Shown here: positions 49,724 through 63,608 of the stretch, one piece after another
Position numbering within the stretch: the first letter of the stretch is position 1
Layout: each line of letters begins with the position of its first letter
IMG/VR virus record: IMGVR_UViG_3300025608_000006
Length of the DNA stretch: 64,000 nucleotides
DNA from: a virus
Taxonomy: Duplodnaviria > Caudoviricetes
Direction: 5' to 3' (one strand)
Notes under the pieces: model-generated
The model's database searches: none
What the model was told of the DNA's origin: nothing
The model's input: only the letters and a program-made list of their open reading frames with translations
Position numbers and translations under genes: made by a program

Positions 49724-50206
49724 TTAGATGTCGTAGCCTTGTGCTTTGAGGCGTGCCACTTCAAGTGTTACACGAGTCTCCAAGTCGTCAAAGATTGGAA
49801 AGCCAAGTGCGTCCGAACCTGCATTGTAACGGTCATGCACAATCCAACCTGCGGCAGTGTGCAAGTAAAAGTATTCGCAGCCGCTGCCTGTGTAGTATTC
49901 AACAAACTCCTGCACAGTGTCAAACTCGACTGCTTCTGTGTTGCTTTCGCCTCTGTCACGTCCGTAGAATACAGTAACGCCTTCCTCTGGAGTTGCAAAG
50001 CTGTGTCCGCTGCCTGGCATTGGAAAAATTTCTTCTGCCATGTAGCTTTGATCGCCTAGCTCTACCATCTGTGCAACTTTGCGAGCTTGCTGGTAGTGCT
50101 CCTGCAACGTGCGTCCTGCGCCTGCTACATAGCCATCATAGTGTGAATACTTTGCACGGATTTTGCCTTCTGGTGTTTTGTAACCAATTGCTGAACGAGT
50201 TCCCAT
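49724..50206 (-). CDS. early hypothetical protein (MGTRS-type)
   Basis: Own promoter module; MGTRSAIG...HYDGY...YGRDRGE...EYFYL. Confidence 0.7.
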   Translation of the reverse strand: MGTRSAIGYKTPEGKIRAKYSHYDGYVAGAGRTLQEHYQQARKVAQMVELGDQSYMAEEIFPMPGSGHSFATPEEGVTVFYGRDRGESNTEAVEFDTVQEFVEYYTGSGCEYFYLHTAAGWIVHDRYNAGSDALGFPIFDDLETRVTLEVARLKAQGYDI

Positions 50207-50285
50207 TGCATATGCTCCTTATGCGTTTGTTTAACTTATACATACACTATAGCACCTGAATGCTATAGTGTCAACCTTTTTCTGC

Positions 50286-50561
50286 CTATGCCTCCAAACT
50301 TTTTAGCATGCTGGCTGTGACCTTCCACTTGCCCTGCGTGGGCGAGTTTACAATCACTGTCTTGCGATTGATTTTCTCAACCATTCCCGTCACAGTGCGT
50401 CCACCGCGTCCTGTGAAGCTTACAGCATCGCCTACAGTGAGTGAACGTGCTGTAGCTCGTGCGTTGAATGTGCGTTGGAGTTTGATTGCTTCAACCACTT
50501 GGTTGATCTCATCGTTGTTCATGTTGCGGATTGCTGTGATTGCGGTTTGTACGTTGTTCAT
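50286..50561 (-). CDS. early hypothetical protein with SH3/KOW-like C-terminus
   Basis: Own promoter module; LTVGDAVSF...GMVEKINRKTVIV...WKVTASML. Confidence 0.7.
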   Translation of the reverse strand: MNNVQTAITAIRNMNNDEINQVVEAIKLQRTFNARATARSLTVGDAVSFTGRGGRTVTGMVEKINRKTVIVNSPTQGKWKVTASMLKSLEA

Positions 50562-50604
50562 CTTGTAGCCCTCTTTGTTAACTTATACATACACTATAGC
50601 ACCA

Positions 50605-50823
50605 CTATGCTAGAATGTCAACCTCTTTTTCAAACTTTTCTACAGTTTCTTCAAATTGTTTTGCAAGCGATACCAAGTTCATCATAGCAAACTCAGCTTC
50701 CATGCTGCCTGCTTCTGTTGTGTCCAGTATGCGGATGCGCTCTGCCATCATGCCTGCGATTGCTTTATATGCACCGCACTCACGTGCTGTCTTCATGCTT
50801 TGATCAAAAAATGTATCGTTCAT
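50605..50823 (-). CDS. early hypothetical protein
   Basis: Own promoter module; C-terminus overlaps the next promoter. Confidence 0.65.
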   Translation of the reverse strand: MNDTFFDQSMKTARECGAYKAIAGMMAERIRILDTTEAGSMEAEFAMMNLVSLAKQFEETVEKFEKEVDILA

Positions 50824-50887
50824 CTTGTTGCCCTCTTGCTTAACTTATACATACACTATAGCACCAGTCGTGCTAGTTGTCAACTCC

Positions 50888-51280
50888 TTATTGCAAGAAA
50901 TCTTCCTTTAGGATCTCCAGCATACGAACTGCTTCTGTACGTGCTTGATCAATAGCTTCAATTGCCATGCCGTTGATAACGCCGTCTGTTTTGTCATCTT
51001 GTGCCAGCCAATCTGCAGGTGACTCTGCTACAATTGAGCCTAGGTAGCTCTCGCCCATAACCTTGCCGTCATACTTGGCTTGCACACGAACGATCATGTG
51101 CTGCCAAAAGCCCGACTCCAAGTTTTCAATCAACTCAGGGTAGTAGTCTGCCTCAGTGTCAAACAACAGATCCAACTGAGTGTCGTCTGGAGCGAACGCA
51201 ATCTCTACTGTGAACTGCTCGTGGTCGAACTCTTCCTCTACGTAGAAGTTGTCGTTGTTTTTGAAAAATGCGTGTGTCAT
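50888..51280 (-). CDS. early hypothetical acidic protein
   Basis: Own promoter module. Confidence 0.65.
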   Translation of the reverse strand: MTHAFFKNNDNFYVEEEFDHEQFTVEIAFAPDDTQLDLLFDTEADYYPELIENLESGFWQHMIVRVQAKYDGKVMGESYLGSIVAESPADWLAQDDKTDGVINGMAIEAIDQARTEAVRMLEILKEDFLQ

Positions 51281-51429
51281 GTGCTTGCCCTTTGTTCTAA
51301 CTATACATACACTATAGCACAGGTGTGCTGGGTTGTCAACCTCTAATTTAAACTTTTTTCTGAGGACCCAACAGCGGGGCCTACAGGTGTGTACACTATA
51401 GCACAGTGTGCGCTATAGTGCAAATTATT

Positions 51430-51675
51430 TTATAGCTGCTCTAGTGCAGCTTCTATTATATTATGCGCACAGCTGTCTGTTGCAAAGCCCTCCTCTTGTG
51501 CAAAGTCGACGCTGCTGCTGCACATAATAGTGTCTGTGTTTACATTAACGTTGTTTGCTGTAAACAGTGCTGCAAGTTGTGCTGCTGTGTATGCAGCGCC
51601 TACAACTGTGTTGTTTACTGTTACAACAATTGCAGCGTCTGTTGCGTTTAGGAATACGTAGTTTGTGTTTTGCAT
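51430..51675 (-). CDS. early hypothetical protein (GA/TC-poor segment)
   Basis: Own promoter module; CSSSVDFAQEEGF. Confidence 0.6.
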   Translation of the reverse strand: MQNTNYVFLNATDAAIVVTVNNTVVGAAYTAAQLAALFTANNVNVNTDTIMCSSSVDFAQEEGFATDSCAHNIIEAALEQL

Positions 51676-51804
51676 AATGTGCTCCTCATATGCTTGTTTA
51701 ACTTATACATACACTATAGCATATGTATAAGCAGTTGTCAACTGAAAGTAATTGTTGGAAAACAAGCACTTAGCATTTTTTTACTAAGTGCTTGTTTTTG
51801 TTGG

Positions 51805-52074
51805 TTAAATTGCGCAATGTACAATGCGCAAATAACGTGCTGTGCTAGGCATAGCGTATGCAAACGTTTTAGTTGCGTGTACACATTTAACGTTTAGTGC
51901 TTGCTGCAACTGCTGCAATACACTAGGAGGCATGCTGCTTACAGTAAAGCACAAGTTGCGCAGTTTAGGATTTACACACATATTTGTATAAGTGTGCTTG
52001 CTTACAGCAATATTGTTTTGCTTTAGGATGTTACGTACAATGTTACGTGCTGTTTTAGTAGTAGTATTTTGCAT
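51805..52074 (-). CDS. early hypothetical protein lacking Asp/Glu/Gly/Trp
   Basis: True start MQNTTTK behind a promoter module. Confidence 0.55.
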   Translation of the reverse strand: MQNTTTKTARNIVRNILKQNNIAVSKHTYTNMCVNPKLRNLCFTVSSMPPSVLQQLQQALNVKCVHATKTFAYAMPSTARYLRIVHCAI

Positions 52075-52165
52075 ATAAAGCCCTCTATGCTTGTTTACGT
52101 TATATACACTTATAGCACAAGTGTGCGCTGCTGTCAAGTGTTTTTTTAACAGCAGCACAACTTTT

Positions 52166-52369
52166 TTACAAGTACTTGCTTTCGTTTACCTCGTCGTTGC
52201 TGTAGCGTGTAGCTGCTACAATTGCAGCATAATCGGAGTTTGCCGCTAATAGCTGCTGCATAACAGCAACAAGCTCCTCTGCTGTGTCTATGCACAGTGT
52301 TTGCGTTTGTGTTACGTACTCGAGTTGTTGTGCGCAGTGCTGTAGTGCTAGTGCTTGTGTAATTTGCAT
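52166..52369 (-). CDS. early hypothetical protein
   Basis: True start MQITQ behind a promoter module. Confidence 0.55.
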   Translation of the reverse strand: MQITQALALQHCAQQLEYVTQTQTLCIDTAEELVAVMQQLLAANSDYAAIVAATRYSNDEVNESKYL

Positions 52370-52461
52370 AGTTTGCCCTCTATGTTTGTTTACGTTATAA
52401 CTTAATATAGCACAAGTGTGCGCTGCTGTCAACTGAAAAATGCTAACAGCAGCAACTTTTT

Positions 52462-52755
52462 TTATGCAACTTGCATACTTGTAATAGTGTCTGCATAGTA
52501 GTGCAGCATGCTATACATGCATTCTCTAACAGCAGTATCCGCAGCACTGTTTAAACAGGCAGCTGCTAAACTGTTTACTGTTGTGTGCTGCATGTAGTTG
52601 TCGTATAAAAATTGCATTTTATAGCAGTTGTCTAATATGCAGTAGTCGTTTGCTTCCGCTACGCTGTCATGTGCAGCGTGTGTAATTGCTTCCGCATAGC
52701 TTGCAATTGCGCTTGCTACTACTTCCGCATAAATTGCTTGTTGTGTGTTTTGCAT
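52462..52755 (-). CDS. early hypothetical protein
   Basis: Promoter module with a TAGACA -35 variant. Confidence 0.55.
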   Translation of the reverse strand: MQNTQQAIYAEVVASAIASYAEAITHAAHDSVAEANDYCILDNCYKMQFLYDNYMQHTTVNSLAAACLNSAADTAVRECMYSMLHYYADTITSMQVA

Positions 52756-52892
52756 AGTAATGCCCTCTATGTTGTTAACTTATACATACACTATAGCATA
52801 TGTTTGTGTGTTTGTCTAGCGAAAAGAAGTGTTGGAAAACAAGCACTTAGCATTTTTTTTGTAAGTGCTTGTTTTTGTTAATTAAATTATTT

Positions 52893-53126
52893 TTACGTTT
52901 GCCATGCAACTACACTGTCATTTTGTATAGCAACACGTACATTTTCTAATGCGCCATTTGCTGCACTACGCTTTGCAAAAAAGTGCATAATGTCTCCGGC
53001 ACTGTGTTTTGTTTTGTTGTAAAAATTAAAACTTGTGTATACACACTTGTCTACTGCACAGTAAGCAACAGCAGTTGCGTTAGTAGCAAGGTCGGATACA
53101 TTATTAGCATTTGTGTAACGTAGCAT
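52893..53126 (-). CDS. early hypothetical protein
   Basis: Own promoter module. Confidence 0.55.
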   Translation of the reverse strand: MLRYTNANNVSDLATNATAVAYCAVDKCVYTSFNFYNKTKHSAGDIMHFFAKRSAANGALENVRVAIQNDSVVAWQT

Positions 53127-53309
53127 ATTATAGCCCTCTATTTTGTTAACTTGTACATACAGTATAACACAAACAGCACAGTTGTCAACTGAAAAATGAA
53201 CAAAAATGAACAGCTAAGTCATTGACTGCCAACAGTTTTAAATTTTATTTTAGCCAATACAATCAAACACTTAGCAGCACCTCGGGCACAAATGTGAACA
53301 CAGTCGGCA

Positions 53310-53642
53310 CTACATGCTCCAGTATGCCTCACTAGCTGGGCTCATATAGTTGGGAGTGTTGACCGACTCAGTATACAGTGTGTTGCTCATCATATTTGTG
53401 CGTGTGCGACTCTTCTCAATAGTACTATGGAAGTAGTTGGCCTCTGCTATGCCATAACGGTACTGAGGATCGTTGACTGAGTCCTTGAGGTCTGCTCTAT
53501 AACGTTTGCTCATCTTAGTAAGAGCAGCTTGGGCAGCACTCATGGTCTTGTAGCTCTTGCGGTGATCTGGACGAACCTCGCCCGAACGTGTGTCCATCTT
53601 GCCCATGATGTAAGTTGACGATTTTTCATAAATGTAATACAT
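53310..53642 (-). CDS. early hypothetical protein
   Basis: Own promoter module; ESVNTPNYMSPASEAYWSM. Confidence 0.7.
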   Translation of the reverse strand: MYYIYEKSSTYIMGKMDTRSGEVRPDHRKSYKTMSAAQAALTKMSKRYRADLKDSVNDPQYRYGIAEANYFHSTIEKSRTRTNMMSNTLYTESVNTPNYMSPASEAYWSM

Positions 53643-53701
53643 AGTGATCCCTCTACGTTTGTTAACTTATAATACTACTATAGCACCATACTGCAGGCTT
53701 G

Positions 53702-53917
53702 TCAACCTTTTTGTTTGAGGCGCCGCCTTCTTTGAGCAGCCACCTGGGGTCTGAATTGTTCTTTTAGTGTGCTCAAGTTCTCGCTCACAAACTCTTCAAA
53801 TGAATATGGTTGAACCTGACGGAAGCCATCATACTCATCTCGATTCTCCCAGTAGCGATTGGTACAGAACACTCTGAAACTTCTTGGACGATGATAGCTT
53901 GAATGTGAATGACTCAT
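53702..53917 (-). CDS. early hypothetical protein
   Basis: True start MSHSH behind the first promoter module of the array. Confidence 0.6.
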   Translation of the reverse strand: MSHSHSSYHRPRSFRVFCTNRYWENRDEYDGFRQVQPYSFEEFVSENLSTLKEQFRPQVAAQRRRRLKQKG

Positions 53918-54025
53918 GTTATAGCCTCTGATCAATTAACCTATACACTAACTATAACACCAACAGTTGCGTTTGTCAACCTCTGATTCACAAACTCAAC
54001 AACAAACAACAGAACCTAAACCCCC

Positions 54026-54632
54026 AACAGCGGGGCCTTTACAGCACAGTGTACAGTATACTAGTAGTAGAGTCAATAGTAGTAGAGCTGAGTGTGAACA
54101 GTATAGTAATAGTAGTAGTAGAGCACAACCTATACAGCATAGTAGTAGCAGTAGTAGTTGAGCTAGAGTTGACACTATACAGTCAGTCAGGTGCTGTACT
54201 AGTAGTAGAGCTCTACGAGGAAGGTGCCAACAGCGGGGCCTTTGACAGCATACACGGTGTCATACACGGTGTCAACACCATCAAATGTGGTTTTCTTGGT
54301 TGATTTTGGGTGAGTAGATGTTATAATATAACAGTTCTCTTCACGGTTTGCACCACTATATATAGTATGAAAAAAATTCTTGCGCTCGGTCACGAGAGGC
54401 ATAGTTCAAATACTTTTGCAGGTTTGCATTCTACAGTTTACACCTTTGCAATTTGCAACTCACACTCGTTAACAGCGGGGCCTTTGTGTGTGTACGTTGG
54501 TTGTATAGGCTCAATAGCTCCGCTCAACTACTACTACTACTACTAGCAGTATCACTACTACTACTCATACTACTCATACTCAAGATGGATAGGCTCTTCT
54601 ACTCCAGTAGATTGTTCAACAGCGGGGCCTTT
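54026..54632 (+). repeat. Four direct copies of AACAGCGGGGCCTTT (fifth, partial copy at 51370)
   Basis: Exact 15-mers at 54026, 54229, 54471 and 54618 within low-complexity (TAG)n/(CTA)n DNA. Confidence 0.85.
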
Positions 54633-54717
54633 GTGTGTTTGCTACTACTACTATAGTCCGTGTATACGCATATGCCTTTTATGCTTGACAGAGTGTATAG
54701 TGTGTGCTATATAGTAG

Positions 54718-54987
54718 ATGTATTTGTATTGTATAAGTGATGGTTCATTGTGTAAGTTTGGTTATAGTGTGGATCCTCAACGTAGATTGCGTAGTTTACA
54801 AACGGGTAGTAGTAGTCAATTAGAGTTGGTTCATAGTATACTAGTAGATGTAGATCAGGGTAGGGTATTAGAGCGTACATTTCATCGTGAGTATGCTCAT
54901 CGTCGTGCTAGAGGGGAATGGTTTCGTTGTACAGTAGAGGAAGCAGTAGTGTGGTTAACGTGGTTTGAAATACACTATGTTAACTAG
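54718..54987 (+). CDS. T5orf172/GIY-YIG-like protein
   Basis: YLYCI...KFGYSVDPQRRLRSLQTG...LERTFH...GEWF; TTGACA promoter upstream. Confidence 0.75.
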   Translation: MYLYCISDGSLCKFGYSVDPQRRLRSLQTGSSSQLELVHSILVDVDQGRVLERTFHREYAHRRARGEWFRCTVEEAVVWLTWFEIHYVN

Positions 54988-55195
54988 ATTTCTTGCCCAT
55001 TAGTCGAGCTTTGTATTCATCAGCTGCTGACTGTTTGGGTTGTTCTCGTTGAGTGGGTTCAGGGTCTTCTACTACTACACTAGCGGGTTCAAGGTTTGTG
55101 TTTGTGCTGTTGAGTTCTAGTTGTGCTCTTAGACGCTCGATGCGAGTTCTTAGTTCTTGTACTTTTTGATGTATATCCATTGGGTGCGCTTTCAC
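54980..55195 (-). CDS. hypothetical coiled-coil protein
   Basis: 71 aa ORF in the minus-strand cluster. Confidence 0.5.
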   Translation of the reverse strand: MKAHPMDIHQKVQELRTRIERLRAQLELNSTNTNLEPASVVVEDPEPTQREQPKQSAADEYKARLMGKKSS

Positions 55196-55302
55196 TAGTG
55201 GTGTCTACACCTTCCACAGTCATGTAGTGCAGCAGTTGCAGTAGACTTTCTCTAGTGTGACTGTTGAGTGTGCTGTTGTTGAGTTGTAGTAGTATTTGTC
55301 GT

Positions 55303-55683
55303 TTATTCATCTGTTGTGCTTGGGGGAGGCTGATTGTTGCCTGAGAGTCTCAGTTTGGGTCTTCCTTTGGTGCGGATTACTCCGGGTATGGGTGTGGTTC
55401 TTGGCTGTGGGGGTTGTTCACCTTTGACTCTAGTGGTGTAGCTGCCGTCCTCGTTCTCTTCTGTGATCATTTCTGCACGTTCGATGTTGAAGTATGCTGC
55501 CACTAGGTCACACACCAAGTATACTTCTTCAGCAGCAGCGTCAGTGGTCTGTAGTTCTGCTACTAGAGCGCTCCAGTTCAACAGTTGATTCACTGCTTCC
55601 AGTACTGCACTTTGAATTTCGTCATCGCTCAAATCATCATCATCATAGTTGTCGTCGTTCATACTCAGCTTTCCTCCTGCCAT
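55303..55683 (-). CDS. hypothetical acidic protein
   Basis: 126 aa ORF. Confidence 0.55.
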   Translation of the reverse strand: MAGGKLSMNDDNYDDDDLSDDEIQSAVLEAVNQLLNWSALVAELQTTDAAAEEVYLVCDLVAAYFNIERAEMITEENEDGSYTTRVKGEQPPQPRTTPIPGVIRTKGRPKLRLSGNNQPPPSTTDE

Positions 55684-55946
55684 TCTATGGTGTCCACATC
55701 CCAGCAGTCATCAAATGCTACAGTAAACTGTTGTAGGCTCACTGTGTCCTGCAGTTGTACCAAACTCTGCTCCATGTCCCTCACCTGTATAACGCCTATG
55801 CTTTCGTACACCTCGGGTGTGCCTGGATGAGCTTGACCCACTTGTAGACCACTTGCACTCACTGGTGTGCCTGTTTCGTCCACAAAGGTCACTGTTCGAA
55901 ATCTGCAGGCCCAGCTTTCGCCCACTGGTATGTCTTGAATTTTCAT
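55665..55946 (-). CDS. hypothetical protein
   Basis: 93 aa ORF with AGGAGCA RBS. Confidence 0.6.
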   Translation of the reverse strand: MKIQDIPVGESWACRFRTVTFVDETGTPVSASGLQVGQAHPGTPEVYESIGVIQVRDMEQSLVQLQDTVSLQQFTVAFDDCWDVDTIEWQEES

Positions 55947-56049
55947 CGTTGTGCTCCTGTGCGTTTGATATACTATTACTTATACCAACACAGTCTAGCA
56001 GATAAATATTTGTGACTAGCTAGTATAGTCCACAACAGGAGAATTTCCC

Positions 56050-58572: not shown

Positions 58573-59220
58573 TTACCAATCTGTTAAAGCAAAACGTTTC
58601 CATATTGATGAAGTGCCGTTGTAATCAGCTGTACAATAATATAGATAGTTTTCGTCTATTGCAATGTCACCCTTTATATCATCTTCTGTACCAACAGGTG
58701 AAGCAATTGTATTAGGAGGTATGTTTGGCTTTGTTAAATAAGCCCTATTGTCTTCTAGTGCAAACGGAAGATGAGAAGAGATATTTTCGTCATCATAAAC
58801 ACAAGATTTGAATATTAATGCTTCTTTATTAGTAGCAGGATTTATTGCAACCGAAATCTTAAAAGGTTGAGTATTATCTTTTATCTTTGAGTCAAACCCT
58901 AACCAATCTTGTATAGTTGATCTCTTTAGCAATGCTTGACTTTTTGCTATAATTAAGTCTGCATTTAGTGCTGAAGTTTGTGTATTTTCACTAATAATAT
59001 TAGTTGATTTAATTAATTCTAAAATGCTGTGTCCGTCGATGGTGATATCATCGCTGACAATATTATTAGCTGTTAGTGTAGTTGTTGATATATCAATAGA
59101 TTCTAAAGTAGCAGTATTAGATGTAATAAAAATAGAATTTTCAAGTTCGCTAACAACAATGTTAGAAACTCCAATTAATTCTCTTCCATCTCTTAATATA
59201 ATTTTATTGTTCAATGACAT
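58573..59220 (-). CDS. hypothetical virion-type protein
   Basis: C-terminal GTEDDIKGDIAIDENYLYYCT...WKR repeat typical of tail-associated proteins. Confidence 0.5.
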   Translation of the reverse strand: MSLNNKIILRDGRELIGVSNIVVSELENSIFITSNTATLESIDISTTTLTANNIVSDDITIDGHSILELIKSTNIISENTQTSALNADLIIAKSQALLKRSTIQDWLGFDSKIKDNTQPFKISVAINPATNKEALIFKSCVYDDENISSHLPFALEDNRAYLTKPNIPPNTIASPVGTEDDIKGDIAIDENYLYYCTADYNGTSSIWKRFALTDW

Positions 59221-60148
59221 TTTGTATTTTTATTGTTTTTCTAACTAAGTTCTCGTGAATTAGTTTGGCTAGTTTTGTTCTAGAACCTAAGTCTATATGA
59301 AATTGGCTGAACCCCCATTTGTGATTAGCATCAATAAAAACAGGCTCGTTTAATTTAATTACATCAATATCTGATTTATAGTGATGTCTAAACTTGTTCA
59401 TAATGATATTACTCAATCTTTCAGCATATTTGTGATCAGTAGGATCTGATATTACTTTTGTTTGTCTATAGAACATCAAGTTGTCTGGACCAACTTTAAT
59501 ATTTTTAATAGTATGATCTTTTGAAATAACAAAATCAGATAGATGTGTCTTGACTAATATTACTCTATCTTGAAAAATTTCGTAGATGTCTCGTGCAAAG
59601 TCTACCATAAGATCAAAAGACCATTCAAGCGATTCTTTAGTATCAAATGGCAACTGGTACTGATCTTTAGAAATGTATTCCTTCCAAAGCCAATTTAATG
59701 GATTTTTAGGATCTCCTAGTTTACTAAATTGAGGCACACACGTAAAACATTCTTTACCTTTAATAAACTTTGTATATAGCTCTGGGCTGAAACTGATTAA
59801 TATATAGTCATTGGGTCCTGCATTTTTTCTATAGAAATCTAACCAAGGAAATTTTACAATTTCGTCATACAATGTTTTGTTTAATATAACGTCTCTAGAT
59901 TTCCCTGTGGCTAATGTTTCTAATACACGTTGGGCGATGTCGCCTGGTTCTGAATATAGTGAAATAACACTTGTTCCAGCGTTTGGCACACTGTGTTTTG
60001 ATAAATCAAGTTGTTTATTATCAATTTCATTAGGATTCTCGGCTGCATAGTCAATAATATCAAAGTCTTTTTTCAAAACATCAATCATCATATCCTGTAG
60101 ATCGCAACCGCCATATAAAAATACTCTAGGTTTAGTTATCTCGTTCAT
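59204..60148 (-). CDS. hypothetical protein
   Basis: 314 aa AT-rich ORF; YGGCDL, HKWGFSQFH. Confidence 0.6.
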   Translation of the reverse strand: MNEITKPRVFLYGGCDLQDMMIDVLKKDFDIIDYAAENPNEIDNKQLDLSKHSVPNAGTSVISLYSEPGDIAQRVLETLATGKSRDVILNKTLYDEIVKFPWLDFYRKNAGPNDYILISFSPELYTKFIKGKECFTCVPQFSKLGDPKNPLNWLWKEYISKDQYQLPFDTKESLEWSFDLMVDFARDIYEIFQDRVILVKTHLSDFVISKDHTIKNIKVGPDNLMFYRQTKVISDPTDHKYAERLSNIIMNKFRHHYKSDIDVIKLNEPVFIDANHKWGFSQFHIDLGSRTKLAKLIHENLVRKTIKIQNVIEQ

Positions 60149-60217
60149 TAAAATATTTATTAAACCTCTTTTTCAGTTAAGTGTAAATTGATTATTTTTC
60201 CTTGTAACTACTAATAA

Positions 60218-61189
60218 TCAAACTCGACCATTTTTATAATCTTTGAGGCTAAAGTTTGTACCCAACATATAATCAGTACTAGCAGATTTATCGTTACTCC
60301 AAACCAATACTTCTGGATCTTCATACAAGAAGTCACAGTTTTTACAATAATCAATACTGTCAAAGTCACCCATCTCATGTGCTTTGCGTAGTTTGTTGTA
60401 TTCCTCGCCATGCCATATTTCTTCTAGGGTTTGGTTCTGTGCATGACCCAGCACACTTTTACTTTCGTTGGGCGGTCCCATTGTTTGACAGCAAGGAGTA
60501 ACTGCACCTTTCAGTCCGTTGACGCCTCCACTACGTATGGTTATCTCAGGAGCAAAGGGTCTGCCACAAGTTCTACGTTTGCTGGCATCTCTTACATAGT
60601 CTGGGTCGTAGTTTCCGCTCCAATTGTGCATTTTCCATATGTAGCCTATTGATCCAGTTGGTCCAATAAAGTTATTTCTGTACTGTTCTACTTCGTAGTC
60701 AATTTGGTTGTTGTCCAATATCAAGTGATAGCTGCTTATTAGGCAATTGCTATTGGATTTTTTGATATATTCCTTGGCTTTGACAACATTGGTCTTGAGC
60801 AAATCAAAGTTGTCAACAGCCATCCATTCTTTGTACTTGTCTTTGTTATAACCAATACAACTAAATCTAGCAAAGCTTAATCCTGCATCCACACAGTCTT
60901 GCATAAAGTGACCACTAAAGAAACTGCCGTTGCTGTACATAAAGCTAGGCAAGCCACGTTTAGTACATGCTTCGATATAACGAGGTAGATCCTTTGCCAT
61001 AGTAGGCTCGCCTGAACCTTCTAAGTTGATTACAGGAGTGCCAGGAAGTTGATCTAGTATGTTCTCAAACATATCAAACGGCATCTTTCGTGTCCAGTCT
61101 TTGCCTCTGCCAGTTGTTTGTGGACACATCTGACACTTGTAATTACAGCCACCAAACACTTCAACTACTGCTCTTTCTAGATTTTCCAT
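60218..61189 (-). CDS. radical SAM/SPASM domain protein
   Basis: CNYKCQMC (CxxxCxxC), GSGEP; SPASM C...PCC...CxxC; likely start MENLER at 61189. Confidence 0.88.
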   Translation of the reverse strand: MENLERAVVEVFGGCNYKCQMCPQTTGRGKDWTRKMPFDMFENILDQLPGTPVINLEGSGEPTMAKDLPRYIEACTKRGLPSFMYSNGSFFSGHFMQDCVDAGLSFARFSCIGYNKDKYKEWMAVDNFDLLKTNVVKAKEYIKKSNSNCLISSYHLILDNNQIDYEVEQYRNNFIGPTGSIGYIWKMHNWSGNYDPDYVRDASKRRTCGRPFAPEITIRSGGVNGLKGAVTPCCQTMGPPNESKSVLGHAQNQTLEEIWHGEEYNKLRKAHEMGDFDSIDYCKNCDFLYEDPEVLVWSNDKSASTDYMLGTNFSLKDYKNGRV

Positions 61190-61190
61190 A

Positions 61191-62027
61191 TTATAACCGT
61201 CCTTTTTGATGCCCAACTGATAAATGTTCGTCTGTATAGTTATTTCCACTTAAAATTAAAAGAGATGCCTTTATTTGGTCTTTTAACGAAGGACTTTCGT
61301 GCTTGAAGTGAACAATTGTAGATGCGTCGTCTTGCTGTGATACTTGCCAGTTTGAAAAATGTTTTAGTTCGAAATTTGAAAATATTTTATAATTAGAATT
61401 AGAAAGTCTAGCTTTGTATTGATTGTGTGAATTGATCATTGCTTGGGGCAGCGCATCCACGCCCGGCATGCGCAAAATATGAGGAATAAGTGTTCCGTGA
61501 TCAGGCACTAGGGCTGTGTGGTACTCTTTATTCATAAAAAACTCATTGATATTAATTTTCTTCATTTTTTTTAAAAACCTAAATTTTATTCCACTGGTAT
61601 TAAAATAAAATGTTTTAACTGGACCTTGATGGAAAAGATCTAAAATAACTTGCCTAGTACCACCTGGATGCACCACATTTTTCGCCCATCTAGGGTTGTA
61701 ATGAGAGCAGATTGGATCTTTGAATGATTTAGATTTTAGATAAGCATCTAATAAGTAGCAGGCTTTGCTTACCAATTCAATATGAAGCATAGAACCCGAA
61801 TTAACCTCAATAGCTTCGATATCGAATTTGTATCCATCTTCGGTTATAAACTTTTTTAGAAGAGGCTCAAAATTTTCAGAGCCTGCCAAGTGTAACAGTT
61901 CACTATCAATATTGCCAATCCATAAACTCTCATTGAAGTGTGCCCAATGTTTACTTGCTAGTTTTAAACGTTCTGATGAACTAATTTGTAGTTCATCAAG
62001 ATAAAATGGCCTGTCTATTTTAACCAT
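61191..62027 (-). CDS. hypothetical protein
   Basis: 278 aa AT-rich ORF; VVHPGGTR. Confidence 0.55.
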   Translation of the reverse strand: MVKIDRPFYLDELQISSSERLKLASKHWAHFNESLWIGNIDSELLHLAGSENFEPLLKKFITEDGYKFDIEAIEVNSGSMLHIELVSKACYLLDAYLKSKSFKDPICSHYNPRWAKNVVHPGGTRQVILDLFHQGPVKTFYFNTSGIKFRFLKKMKKININEFFMNKEYHTALVPDHGTLIPHILRMPGVDALPQAMINSHNQYKARLSNSNYKIFSNFELKHFSNWQVSQQDDASTIVHFKHESPSLKDQIKASLLILSGNNYTDEHLSVGHQKGRL

Positions 62028-62428
62028 GCAATACGCTTGCCGTCTCGAACACGGCGCTCCTGTTCTTCAACTGATCCTGGATAACGCCATGCCCATATTG
62101 CAACAAGCGCCATAAATCCACCACTCCATAACACAGCTTTGACATTGCCTGTGCTAAACCAAAGGAATGCAAGTGAACTACTCATTACAGCAACCATTGC
62201 ATATTTTCCCCAAGTAGGAAATACTTTCTTTTCTACCCAGTTGGTTAAAAACGGACCAAAGTATTTGTGATTATACAACCATGCATGCATCCTTGGTGAA
62301 CTCTTGGCAAAACAATATGCTGCGAATACCAGGAATATTGAAAACGGAATGCCTGGAACAATCACGCCAATGTATGCCATGCCAAGTGATAGGAAGCCAA
62401 GAGCCATCCATAAGTATTTTTTAATCAT
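62015..62428 (-). CDS. YbaN (DUF454) family membrane protein
   Basis: [37 protein letters not shown]...FGPFLTNW. Confidence 0.85.
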
Positions 62429-63608
62429 TTAGTATCTCTTTCAGTGCTTTTATTAGATCCTCAATCATACCGTCAGTATGATACGGCGTGGGAGCAAAGC
62501 GTAATCTCTCTGTGCCTTCGGGTACCGTAGGATAATTAATGCTTTGTACATATATCCCATAGTCGTTAATAAGTGCATCACTTACAGCTTTACACTTTAT
62601 AGCATCACCTATAAACAATGGAACGATGTGTGTTGTGCTGCAATCCATAGGCTGTAAACCAGCAGCGATTAATTCTTGTTTGAGCTTTTGAGCACGTTCT
62701 TGATGCTGTTGTCTAAGCTCATTATGATCTCGCAAGTATTTGACACTTGCAAGAGCACCAGCAGCCATTACTGGACTCATACTGGTTGTAAAAATAAAGC
62801 CCGAAGCAACAGAGCGGATTGCATCTATGATGTCAGCGTCCGCTGCTATATATCCGCCCTGCACTCCGAAGGCTTTGCCTAGCGTACCGTTTACGATATC
62901 CACATTATCCTGCAGGTTTAGTTTCTGTAAATAGCCTGCTCCCTGTTCTCCGTATAATCCTACGGCGTGAACTTCATCAATGTATGTAATCGCCCCATAC
63001 TTGGTCGCTAGGTTGCAAATGTCGAGGATAGGTGATACGTCTCCATCCATGCTATACACAGACTCGAACACAATACATGGTGTTCCGTTGACAGCTTTCA
63101 ACTTATCCTCAAGGTCACTCATATCATTGTGCTTCCATATGACCTTGTCAGCACCACTGTGTCGTATTCCTTGGATCAAACTTGCGTGATTCTTATCATC
63201 GCTTACGAACACAATGTCGGGAATGATTTGTTTTAGAGCAACCAAACTCCATTCATTTGCAACATACGCTGACGAGTACAGTAGCGCACTACCCTTGCTA
63301 TGCAGGGACGCTAATTCTCCTTCCAGCGCAACATGATAGTGTGATGTTCCGCCAATGTTTCGGGTGCCACCACTGCCAGCGCCAGTCTGATCCAATGCAG
63401 TATGCATTGCATCTATGACAATTTTGTTCTGGCCCATTCCGAGGTAATCATTTGAGCACCAGTTTACAATCTCTTTGATTGAATACTTTCCGTACCAAAT
63501 AGCTTTAGGAAACTTTCCGCGCTCTCTGAGTATATCATTGAACACACGGTACTTGCCTTCCTGTTTCAGCTGTGCAAGTTTTTGTTGGAATGGTTTTTTA
63601 TCTATCAT
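62421..63608 (-). CDS. hemA: 5-aminolevulinate synthase (Shemin pathway)
   Basis: [72 protein letters not shown]. Confidence 0.92.

Follow-up and report, generated by a model that had tools for sequence, protein, structure and literature searches.

The 64,000-nucleotide stretch of viral DNA analysed here (IMG/VR record IMGVR_UViG_3300025608_000006; hereafter the window) belongs to a marine jumbo myovirus that has not been cultured. Its nearest cultured relative is Pseudomonas phage PA5oct (54% identity between the large terminases), and the tail sheath, the UvsX-like recombinase and the DnaB-like helicase have a T4-like character. Between about 42.6 and 54.0 kb, the minus strand of the window is occupied by an array of single-gene early cassettes, each of which carries its own TTGACA-N17-TATAGT promoter, a GAGGGC-type ribosome-binding site, a small open reading frame (ORF) and a hairpin terminator. 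Repeat families D1–D7, i.e., promoter and stem-loop modules around single small ORFs, were found in this array. Within it lies the subject of this study, an island at 51400–53200 that comprises exactly five complete minus-strand cassettes (E, C, X, B and A, bounded by the promoter at 53188 and the stop codon at 51430) and in which the dinucleotides TC, CC, GA and GG are depleted.

All five cassettes are read from the minus strand. Cassette E has a sigma-70-type promoter at 53161–53188 (TTGACA-16-TATACT) and a gene of 77 codons at 52893–53126, the sense strand of which contains one TC, three CC, six GA and three GG. It is followed by a hairpin terminator at 52838–52878, with A and T runs on either side and without any GG, CC, GA or TC, which is part of a 114-nucleotide repeat whose other copy is located at 51698–51811. 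The only return of an Rfam search was a sub-threshold chance match of a terminator hairpin to a microRNA. In the family C cassette, the promoter at 52790–52818 (TAGACA-17-TATAGT) precedes a gene for 97 amino acids (52462–52755) with no sense TC, a single CC, and GA nearly confined to Asp and Glu codons. Cassette X, with a promoter situated inside a stem-loop (52404–52432, TTGACA-17-TATATT), encodes 67 amino acids at 52166–52369 and has no relative among the loci that were fetched. The family B gene (89 amino acids, 51805–52074) has no GA and no GG, three TC and five CC; its promoter at 52109–52137 (TTGACA ... TATAAG) was read by eye from the sequence and is not listed by the consensus scan. 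The hairpin terminator behind family B, at 51760–51800, again has A and T runs on either side and is devoid of the four dinucleotides. Finally, the promoter at 51713–51741 (TTGACA-17-TATAGT) serves the family A gene at 51430–51675, which encodes 81 amino acids with the motif SSSxDFAxEEGF. The promoter and ribosome-site modules of these cassettes are the same as those in the neighbouring cassettes. At the protein level, nearly all of the otherwise unrelated island proteins (51430–53126, and those of related islands) start with MQNT, MQT or MQK (ATGCAAAA...), a start that the neighbouring cassettes do not share. The island cassettes seem to have in common a 5' module whose end extends into the beginning of the coding sequence.

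The size of the depletion was assessed by counting dinucleotides in 300-nucleotide steps. The sequence-only reading had reported, by manual count of the plus strand at 51781–52080, three GA (all within TAGGA), no TC, and few GG or CC; this count proved exact, with GA at 51927, 51969 and 52027, six GG and no CC. Across the window, GA and TC together occur 31.4 times per 300 nucleotides (standard deviation 6.3), and the 18 lowest values, at 4–13, all fall within 51300–53300. For GA, TC, GG and CC taken together, the mean is 50.5 (standard deviation 10) and the island minimum is 11. The depletion is sharply local, as had been claimed: 51401–53300 is the only stretch of the window in which 300-nucleotide counts of the four dinucleotides are 22 or fewer. 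Relative to the rest of the window, symmetrised odds in the island are 0.28 versus 0.89 for GA/TC and 0.27 versus 0.81 for GG/CC, the most enriched dinucleotide is GC (2.37 versus 1.29), and AA/TT is slightly raised (1.13 versus 1.02). The description of this DNA as alternating purine-pyrimidine runs is too simple: AT is low, but both AA/TT and AG/CT occur at normal levels. The island lacks G before a purine and C after a pyrimidine, so that the missing set is GR plus YC (R, purine; Y, pyrimidine), i.e., GA, GG, TC and CC. The GC content of the island is 5–18 points below that of its flanks.

A full scan of a 275-kb relative (G001; mean 49.2 for the four dinucleotides, standard deviation 8.5) revealed a homologous island, with a minimum of 5, as the sole comparable stretch. 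One other segment of this relative, 176100–176800 (locus L060), mimics a low four-dinucleotide count; it is a 700-nucleotide low-complexity coding repeat of Thr, Asn and Ser codons and is unrelated to the islands. Among cultured phages, a near-identity DNA search with 50000–56000 and a tblastn search with the family A protein gave no match, and in the stretch of PA5oct that was scanned (235–285 kb) there were just two low 300-nucleotide windows and no comparable island.

To compare these counts with what the encoded proteins demand, each of the five island genes was subjected to synonymous resampling with the codon usage of the window. The depletion persisted after this codon correction, with 8–16 of the banned dinucleotides per gene against 20–25 expected (p from 0 to 0.024), whereas seven neighbouring genes were normal under the same resampling. 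We further pooled codon counts over 29 island genes from nine phages (7.7 kb). At codon junctions, GA was found 0 times against about 108 expected, TC 11 times (observed/expected 0.10) and CC 6 times (0.08), and at codon positions 2–3 there were 5 GA, 9 TC, 3 GG and 15 CC. Serine is encoded by 162 AGY and 9 TCN codons; ATC accounts for 3 of 136 Ile, TTC for 3 of 98 Phe and GTC for 2 of 232 Val codons, and GCC and ACC are also near absent. The untranslated and spacer DNA of the window island follows the same rule, with GA and GG confined to the –35 box and the ribosome-binding box. Sense GA survives in the GAGGGC/GAGGAG boxes and in 205 Asp and Glu codons, and the ban on sense TC and CC is stricter than that on GA.

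The sites that survive reveal a context rule. None of the 19 Pro codons in the islands is CCA, against 49% in the background, and T precedes GAN codons, which creates TCA on the other strand, in 14% of cases compared to 31.5% of third positions. GAC outnumbers GAT by 84 to 28, and GGC is the favoured surviving Gly codon (11 of 15). Junction GG stands directly before a retained GAN codon in 33 of 43 cases, and before other G-initial codons in 10 of 584. On either strand, YCA is the worst context for YC and a G two bases upstream is tolerated, the two strands being alike in this respect. Neither transfer RNA supply nor codon bias accounts for the ban, as it reaches its greatest strength at codon junctions and between synonyms read by the same transfer RNA (ATC/ATT, TTC/TTT). 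Avoidance of Shine-Dalgarno-like, anti-Shine-Dalgarno-like or CsrA-type GGA words is ruled out by the surviving GA and GG, which lie preferentially in GGA, GAG and AGA, the most avoided contexts being TGA and GAT.

The proteins have been altered along with the DNA. The family B protein contains no Asp, Glu, Gly or Trp, as the sequence-only reading had stated, because its gene lacks any GA or GG. The scarcity of Gly, Pro and Trp noted for its neighbours is equally real: pooled over the five island proteins, these residues make up 1.0, 1.0 and 0.2%, compared to 7.0, 3.8 and 1.4% in long genes, and Ala, Asn, Thr, Val and Gln are raised. Family B also retains ATCCTA and AATCCT at the same codons in the window and in a relative (L010:6347–6616), though YC-free synonymous spellings exist; these sites are the three TAGGA of 51781–52080, and might serve as a word with a function in RNA or DNA, perhaps by pairing with the ribosome-binding box.

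We further analyzed the ban in related phages. A sense-strand ban on TC and CC in early cassettes is a clade-wide trait, present over 0.3–3.5 kb in 23 of 69 related loci and spanning 219651–222950 in the 275-kb relative. In the relatives, the ban is strand-specific, i.e., restricted to sense TC and CC, in stretches of up to 3.5 kb. The density of sense YC in the banned zones is 0.7%, versus about 8–9% elsewhere, and many whole genes that are otherwise rich in Asp, Glu, Gly and Trp have zero sense YC. The ban on GA and GG is a second layer, confined to a subset of the families (A, B, C, D, E, F and X), and the depletion in the window is symmetric because all five of its cassettes are of this double-ban type. 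Since the same context rule applies on both strands and the banned sets are exact reverse complements, these observations suggest a single reader with access to both strands, as opposed to a pair of separate pressures; that two independent readers should yield exactly reverse-complementary sets is unlikely.

Families A–F differ in order and orientation among six of the related loci (L003, L005, L010, L048, L049 and L072), and thus the trait travels with the cassette. Cassette F is inverted between L049/L025 and L072, and its own sense strand has no TC and no CC each time. This ties the ban to transcription and speaks against fixed-strand causes such as the direction of replication or of DNA entry, which the inverted cassette rules out. 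In T4-type phages, PeSL cassettes likewise consist of small early ORFs between a repeated early promoter and a stem-loop terminator, and are shuffled (PMC2839356, PMC4122927). The cassettes of the island and the array share this promoter and stem-loop architecture, as well as the shuffling, gain and loss among relatives; PeSL organisation accounts for cassette mobility, but not for composition. The sequence-only reading had suggested a look at the syntenic site of relatives; in the three phages nearest to the window by marker gene, at 90% identity, the syntenic 6–10 kb have no island.

Two further ideas found no support. In the window, 11 of 31 sense YC lie in spacers, which make up 13% of the length (p = 0.001), as if non-transcribed DNA were spared; the relatives do not show this, and the pattern thus does not discriminate between a reader of RNA and one of DNA. 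Antisense transcripts would need a plus-strand promoter, and the sole candidate at the island edge is a weak 9/12 match at 51390–51419, where the palindromic element is one common to many promoters.

Several observations were made alongside these in the relatives and in the remainder of the window. In one related island (L049:6745–6830), otherwise without TC, CC, GA and GG, there is an insert of about 85 nucleotides with normal, GC-rich composition, bounded by direct repeats of ACTTAACATGTTAA and without a match in Rfam; both a small mobile element and a structured RNA are conceivable. Another locus (L010:4848–6275) has four consecutive small genes with zero sense TC and CC that encode very acidic proteins (20–23% Asp plus Glu) and have no counterpart in the window; such acidity is typical of DNA-mimic or anti-defence proteins. 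In the window itself, there are four copies of the motif AACAGCGGGGCC, one at the island's left edge (51370–51394) and three (54229–54253, 54471–54495 and 54618–54642) in an ORF-poor region at 54.0–54.7 kb, which also holds a 36-nucleotide tandem repeat (54077–54148). A minus-strand block at 58573–63608, of low GC content (31% at 58–60 kb), encodes a SPASM-domain radical-SAM protein (60218–61249), a class I/II aminotransferase (62421–63608) and proteins of no known family.

The island genes encode real proteins. Family A has 562 and family B 53 metagenomic homologs, the ratio of nonsynonymous to synonymous substitution rates (dN/dS) is 0.2–0.4 in five families (about 0.3 for family B), and the predicted models have a mean predicted local distance difference test (pLDDT) score of 94 for family A and 93 for family B. 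A fold search with family A found no match in PDB or BFVD at E <= 0.001, one with family B returned only a generic two-layer alpha/beta arrangement (Z < 8), and the protein atlas placed the island proteins in just unnamed viral clusters with scores below 0.8.

To follow the origin of the ban, family A homologs were taken from viral contigs and grouped by identity to the window protein. Homologs of at least 58% identity lie inside islands and have a banned-dinucleotide density of about 0.05, those of 50–54% identity are intermediate at 0.09–0.10, and those of 46% identity or less, at 0.18–0.21, are normal and lie in no island. The sequence-only reading had reasoned that the same composition in homologs from unrelated contexts would count against selection; the distant homologs are instead normal. 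The essential DFAxEEGF motif is retained in all aligned homologs. Elsewhere in the protein, the purged homologs have Asn, Ala, Thr, Val and Gln in place of the Gly, Glu, Asp and Ser of the normal ones. The invariant Ser-Ser is encoded by TCN in four of five normal homologs and by AGY in every purged one, and codons shift from GCC to GCA or GCT, from ATC to ATT or ATA, and from GGT to GGC. Because these shifts require transversions and codon-family switches, they argue for selection and not for pure C-to-T drift. Judged by this gradient, the ban is a derived, selected state. Synonymous divergence (dS) between purged orthologs ranges from 0.35 to saturation and every lineage retains the ban, which is thus actively maintained.

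These phages practise a selected, conserved and transcription-linked avoidance of 5'-YC-3', which extends to both strands in the window. We infer a trans-acting enzyme as its cause, and likewise the roles of the island proteins. Our tentative preference, held with somewhat less than even confidence, is that the cassettes escape an enzyme which attacks YC(A) in single-stranded nucleic acid, by cleavage or by modification. The immediate-early cassettes would have been recoded, under continuing selection, to shed 5'-YC-3' (TC and CC), most strongly YCA, from the message-sense strand and, in the five window cassettes, also from the complementary strand (where it reads as sense GA and GG). An enzyme in the infected cell, possibly a nuclease, an ADP-ribosyltransferase, a deaminase or a glycosylase, would cut or chemically modify C-containing single strands at YC, both in mRNA and in DNA strands opened by transcription, and might be either a host defence or the phage's own host-shutoff weapon. 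Every YC site would then be a potential disabling hit, and genes needed while the enzyme is active, e.g., those for its inhibitors or for first responders, would drop all dispensable sites; the sites left would be those that are functionally needed, in the –35 box, the ribosome-binding box, Asp and Glu codons, and a few Pro and Gly codons. A one-hit agent fits better than a multi-site agent, because many whole genes have exactly zero sense YC. The all-or-none state per gene, the overriding of amino-acid choice, the context rule that the complementary strand shares and the lowering of G rather than C likewise support an enzyme.

Comparable activities are known, and each differs from the island in some respect. 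T4 endonuclease IV (denB) cuts single-stranded C-containing DNA 5' of dC with a preference for TCA, but T4 protects itself by modifying all of its cytosines and not by loss of sites. Eukaryotic viruses suppress dinucleotides against host readers, i.e., CpG against ZAP, UA and UU against RNase L, and TC under APOBEC3, and APOBEC3 enzymes prefer TCA and CCA-type contexts. The island resembles these cases in its dinucleotide-level recoding against a putative single-strand reader and in the contexts concerned; their suppression, however, is moderate and genome-wide, whereas the island is a near-total ban in less than 1% of the phage genome. Phage defence includes enzymes that recognise words of two to four letters on single strands: DarT2 acts at TNTC in single-stranded DNA (PMC11543638), and CmdT at GA in single-stranded RNA (10.1101/2024.02.24.581662). 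CmdT is thus a dinucleotide-specific defence enzyme of single strands whose word, GA, is among those banned, but the island keeps GA in the ribosome-binding box and in Asp and Glu codons, and bans TC, CC and GG too. GA is not removed from the message as a whole, ribosome-binding site included, as CmdT-type targeting of mRNA would entail.

There are points that weigh against an enzyme. We know of no prokaryotic enzyme with both TC and CC as its words, nor was a candidate gene for a YC enzyme found; the 275-kb relative has no macrodomain, deaminase and transferase families not having been searched for in it. Pfam and PHROGs returned nothing for any island protein, so that no function can be recognised in them. 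Neighbouring cassettes with the same type of promoter are unpurged, which calls for the extra assumption that only some genes act first. In families B and D the pattern is reversed, with GA and GG absent and TC and CC merely reduced, and amino-acid needs are the only explanation available. Lastly, an RNA-level and a DNA-level reader cannot be separated from sequence alone.

The main rival to an enzyme is the transcription terminator Rho, which is near-universal in bacteria. Rho captures nascent RNA via "up to six CC or UC dinucleotides" (PMC13323073), i.e., YC dinucleotides (PMC5314796), and its avoidance shapes coding-strand composition (PMC13323073). YC-free transcripts could evade capture by Rho, so that early genes are read to their end even when ribosomes lag behind the polymerase; we consider this possible but doubtful. 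The pair banned on the sense strand is exactly the Rho ligand, the sense-strand-specific loss of CC and UC in relatives extends over up to 3.5 kb, follows cassette inversion, and includes leaders and terminators, and the sigma-70-type promoters mean that these early genes are read by the host polymerase. Codon choice is constrained, as in the Rho-avoiding composition described for runaway transcription, with its purine bias (PMC13323073). Unlike that composition, the ban in the island is absolute and local, alters proteins and removes GA and GG; avoidance of Rho leaves the latter unexplained (as shown by the junction GA), as well as the poverty of the antisense strand of the window island in YC. 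Nor does base composition agree: the expected sense strand would be G-rich and C-poor, but C in the window island is unchanged at 20.4% and it is G that drops, from 25.9% to 18.5%, a purine- and G-rich, C-poor sense strand being met only in the YC-only cassettes of relatives. Rho requires several YC, and little would be expected to depend on the final one or two; nevertheless, many genes are without YC, Pro is nearly gone and conserved Ser codons have switched family. In addition, the cassettes are short, translated and ended by intrinsic terminators.

It is unlikely that the island is instead a modification-free zone, in which the phage marks G in GR or C in YC elsewhere and keeps these cassettes plain for immediate use by the host polymerase. 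A sense YC ban is a template GR ban, and the template is where a bulky base would hinder the polymerase; DpdA-type insertion of 7-deazaguanine reportedly takes place at GA and GGC in phages CAjan and 9g; and the window encodes the SPASM radical-SAM protein and the aminotransferase mentioned above. Speaking against it, the 275-kb relative, in a contig that is 77% complete, has no gene for TGT/DpdA, QueC or an N6 or N4 methyltransferase, and its thymidylate-synthase homolog matches the canonical profile (337 bits). GGC, moreover, is preferred among the surviving Gly codons, the opposite of what a GGC target would produce, and other early cassettes with the same promoters are unpurged.

A purely mutational origin, in which repeated C-to-U deamination at YC on both strands was focused on this segment with no selection for escape, is very unlikely. 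APOBEC-type enzymes classically act at TC and CC, and the lowered GC content and slightly raised AA/TT of the island would fit such a footprint. But the changes needed include transversions and double changes (TCN to AGY at the invariant Ser, GGT to GGC, Gly and Pro to Ala), the ORFs are intact and constrained as measured by dN/dS, it is GC and not TT that is most enriched, and there is no mechanism that would confine hypermutation to mobile cassettes.

Just as improbable is a by-product of odd protein composition, of low-complexity DNA, or of import from a donor with such a composition: the proteins are indeed rich in Ala, Asn, Thr, Val and Gln and the second low stretch of the relative, at 176.1–176.8 kb, is a mere Thr/Asn-rich repeat, but the resampling, the codon-junction counts and the non-coding parts contradict this, the distant homologs of family A are normal, the promoter and ribosome-site modules do not differ from those of the neighbours, and a whole genome without Gly, Pro, Asp and Glu is impossible.

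The sequence-only reading had proposed that the segment is a first-entering or exposed end of the genome, cleared of restriction- or DarT-type sites (GANTC, GATC or TNTC). Its premise that selection has removed a short nucleotide word, even at a price in amino-acid usage, is supported; these sites as the target, and entry as the reason, are not, and we hold this explanation to be hardly credible. The first-injected DNA of T5 and T7 is depleted of restriction sites, and the island genes are early and contain no GATC and no GANTC at 51400–53200. The first-step-transfer region of T5 and the leading end of T7 resemble the island in that early genes are kept free of a target borne by the rest of the genome ("antidote first"), but the target here is a degenerate dinucleotide and not a 4–6-bp site, and the trait resides on shuffling, invertible cassettes and not at a genome end. 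The mostly palindromic 4–6-bp sites of classical restriction-site avoidance are not what the island avoids: GG and CC are banned as strongly as GA and TC, and other palindromes are plentiful in the islands (observed/expected 5.5 for TGCA and 2.8 for GCGC, with ACGT and GTAC also abundant). Outside the island, GATC is over-represented (237 versus 162.5 expected in a first-order model) and GANTC only mildly low (145 versus 176.5). That the ban moves with the cassettes and stays on the sense strand of inverted cassette F, and that the three closest relatives lack it at the syntenic site, speaks indirectly against a fixed first-entering end. By the same model, GGCC (48 versus 84.6 expected) and CCGG (26 versus 51) are under-represented outside the island.

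Our search of the literature found no published description of such islands. A near-total ban on 4 of 16 dinucleotides, strong enough to strip Gly, Pro and Trp (plus Asp and Glu in one protein) from real, folded proteins, is an unusually clear footprint of selection, and it defines, from sequence alone, the specificity of a putative reader of nucleic acid in infected cells: YC, with YCA the worst, on single strands and linked to transcription. The banned genes are the set that the phage must express despite this reader, and their products are good candidates for a role in counter-defence or host takeover. Were Rho the reader, the island would be the most extreme known case of Rho shaping composition and would provide a simple rule for Rho-proof genes. 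If, as we favour, the reader is an enzyme, it would represent a new class of defence or shutoff activity, and would contradict the published expectation that phages cannot escape a dinucleotide-specific attack by loss of sites, a route judged implausible by the authors who described CmdT (10.1101/2024.02.24.581662). The island's small proteins, some acidic and some basic, would then act as inhibitors of the YC(A) enzyme or as first responders. It is conceivable, though we would not count on it, that marine bacteria or these phages themselves possess an undescribed YC(A) enzyme, active on single-stranded RNA or on DNA opened by transcription, that presses jumbo phages to rewrite, even in their amino acids, the genes they express first.

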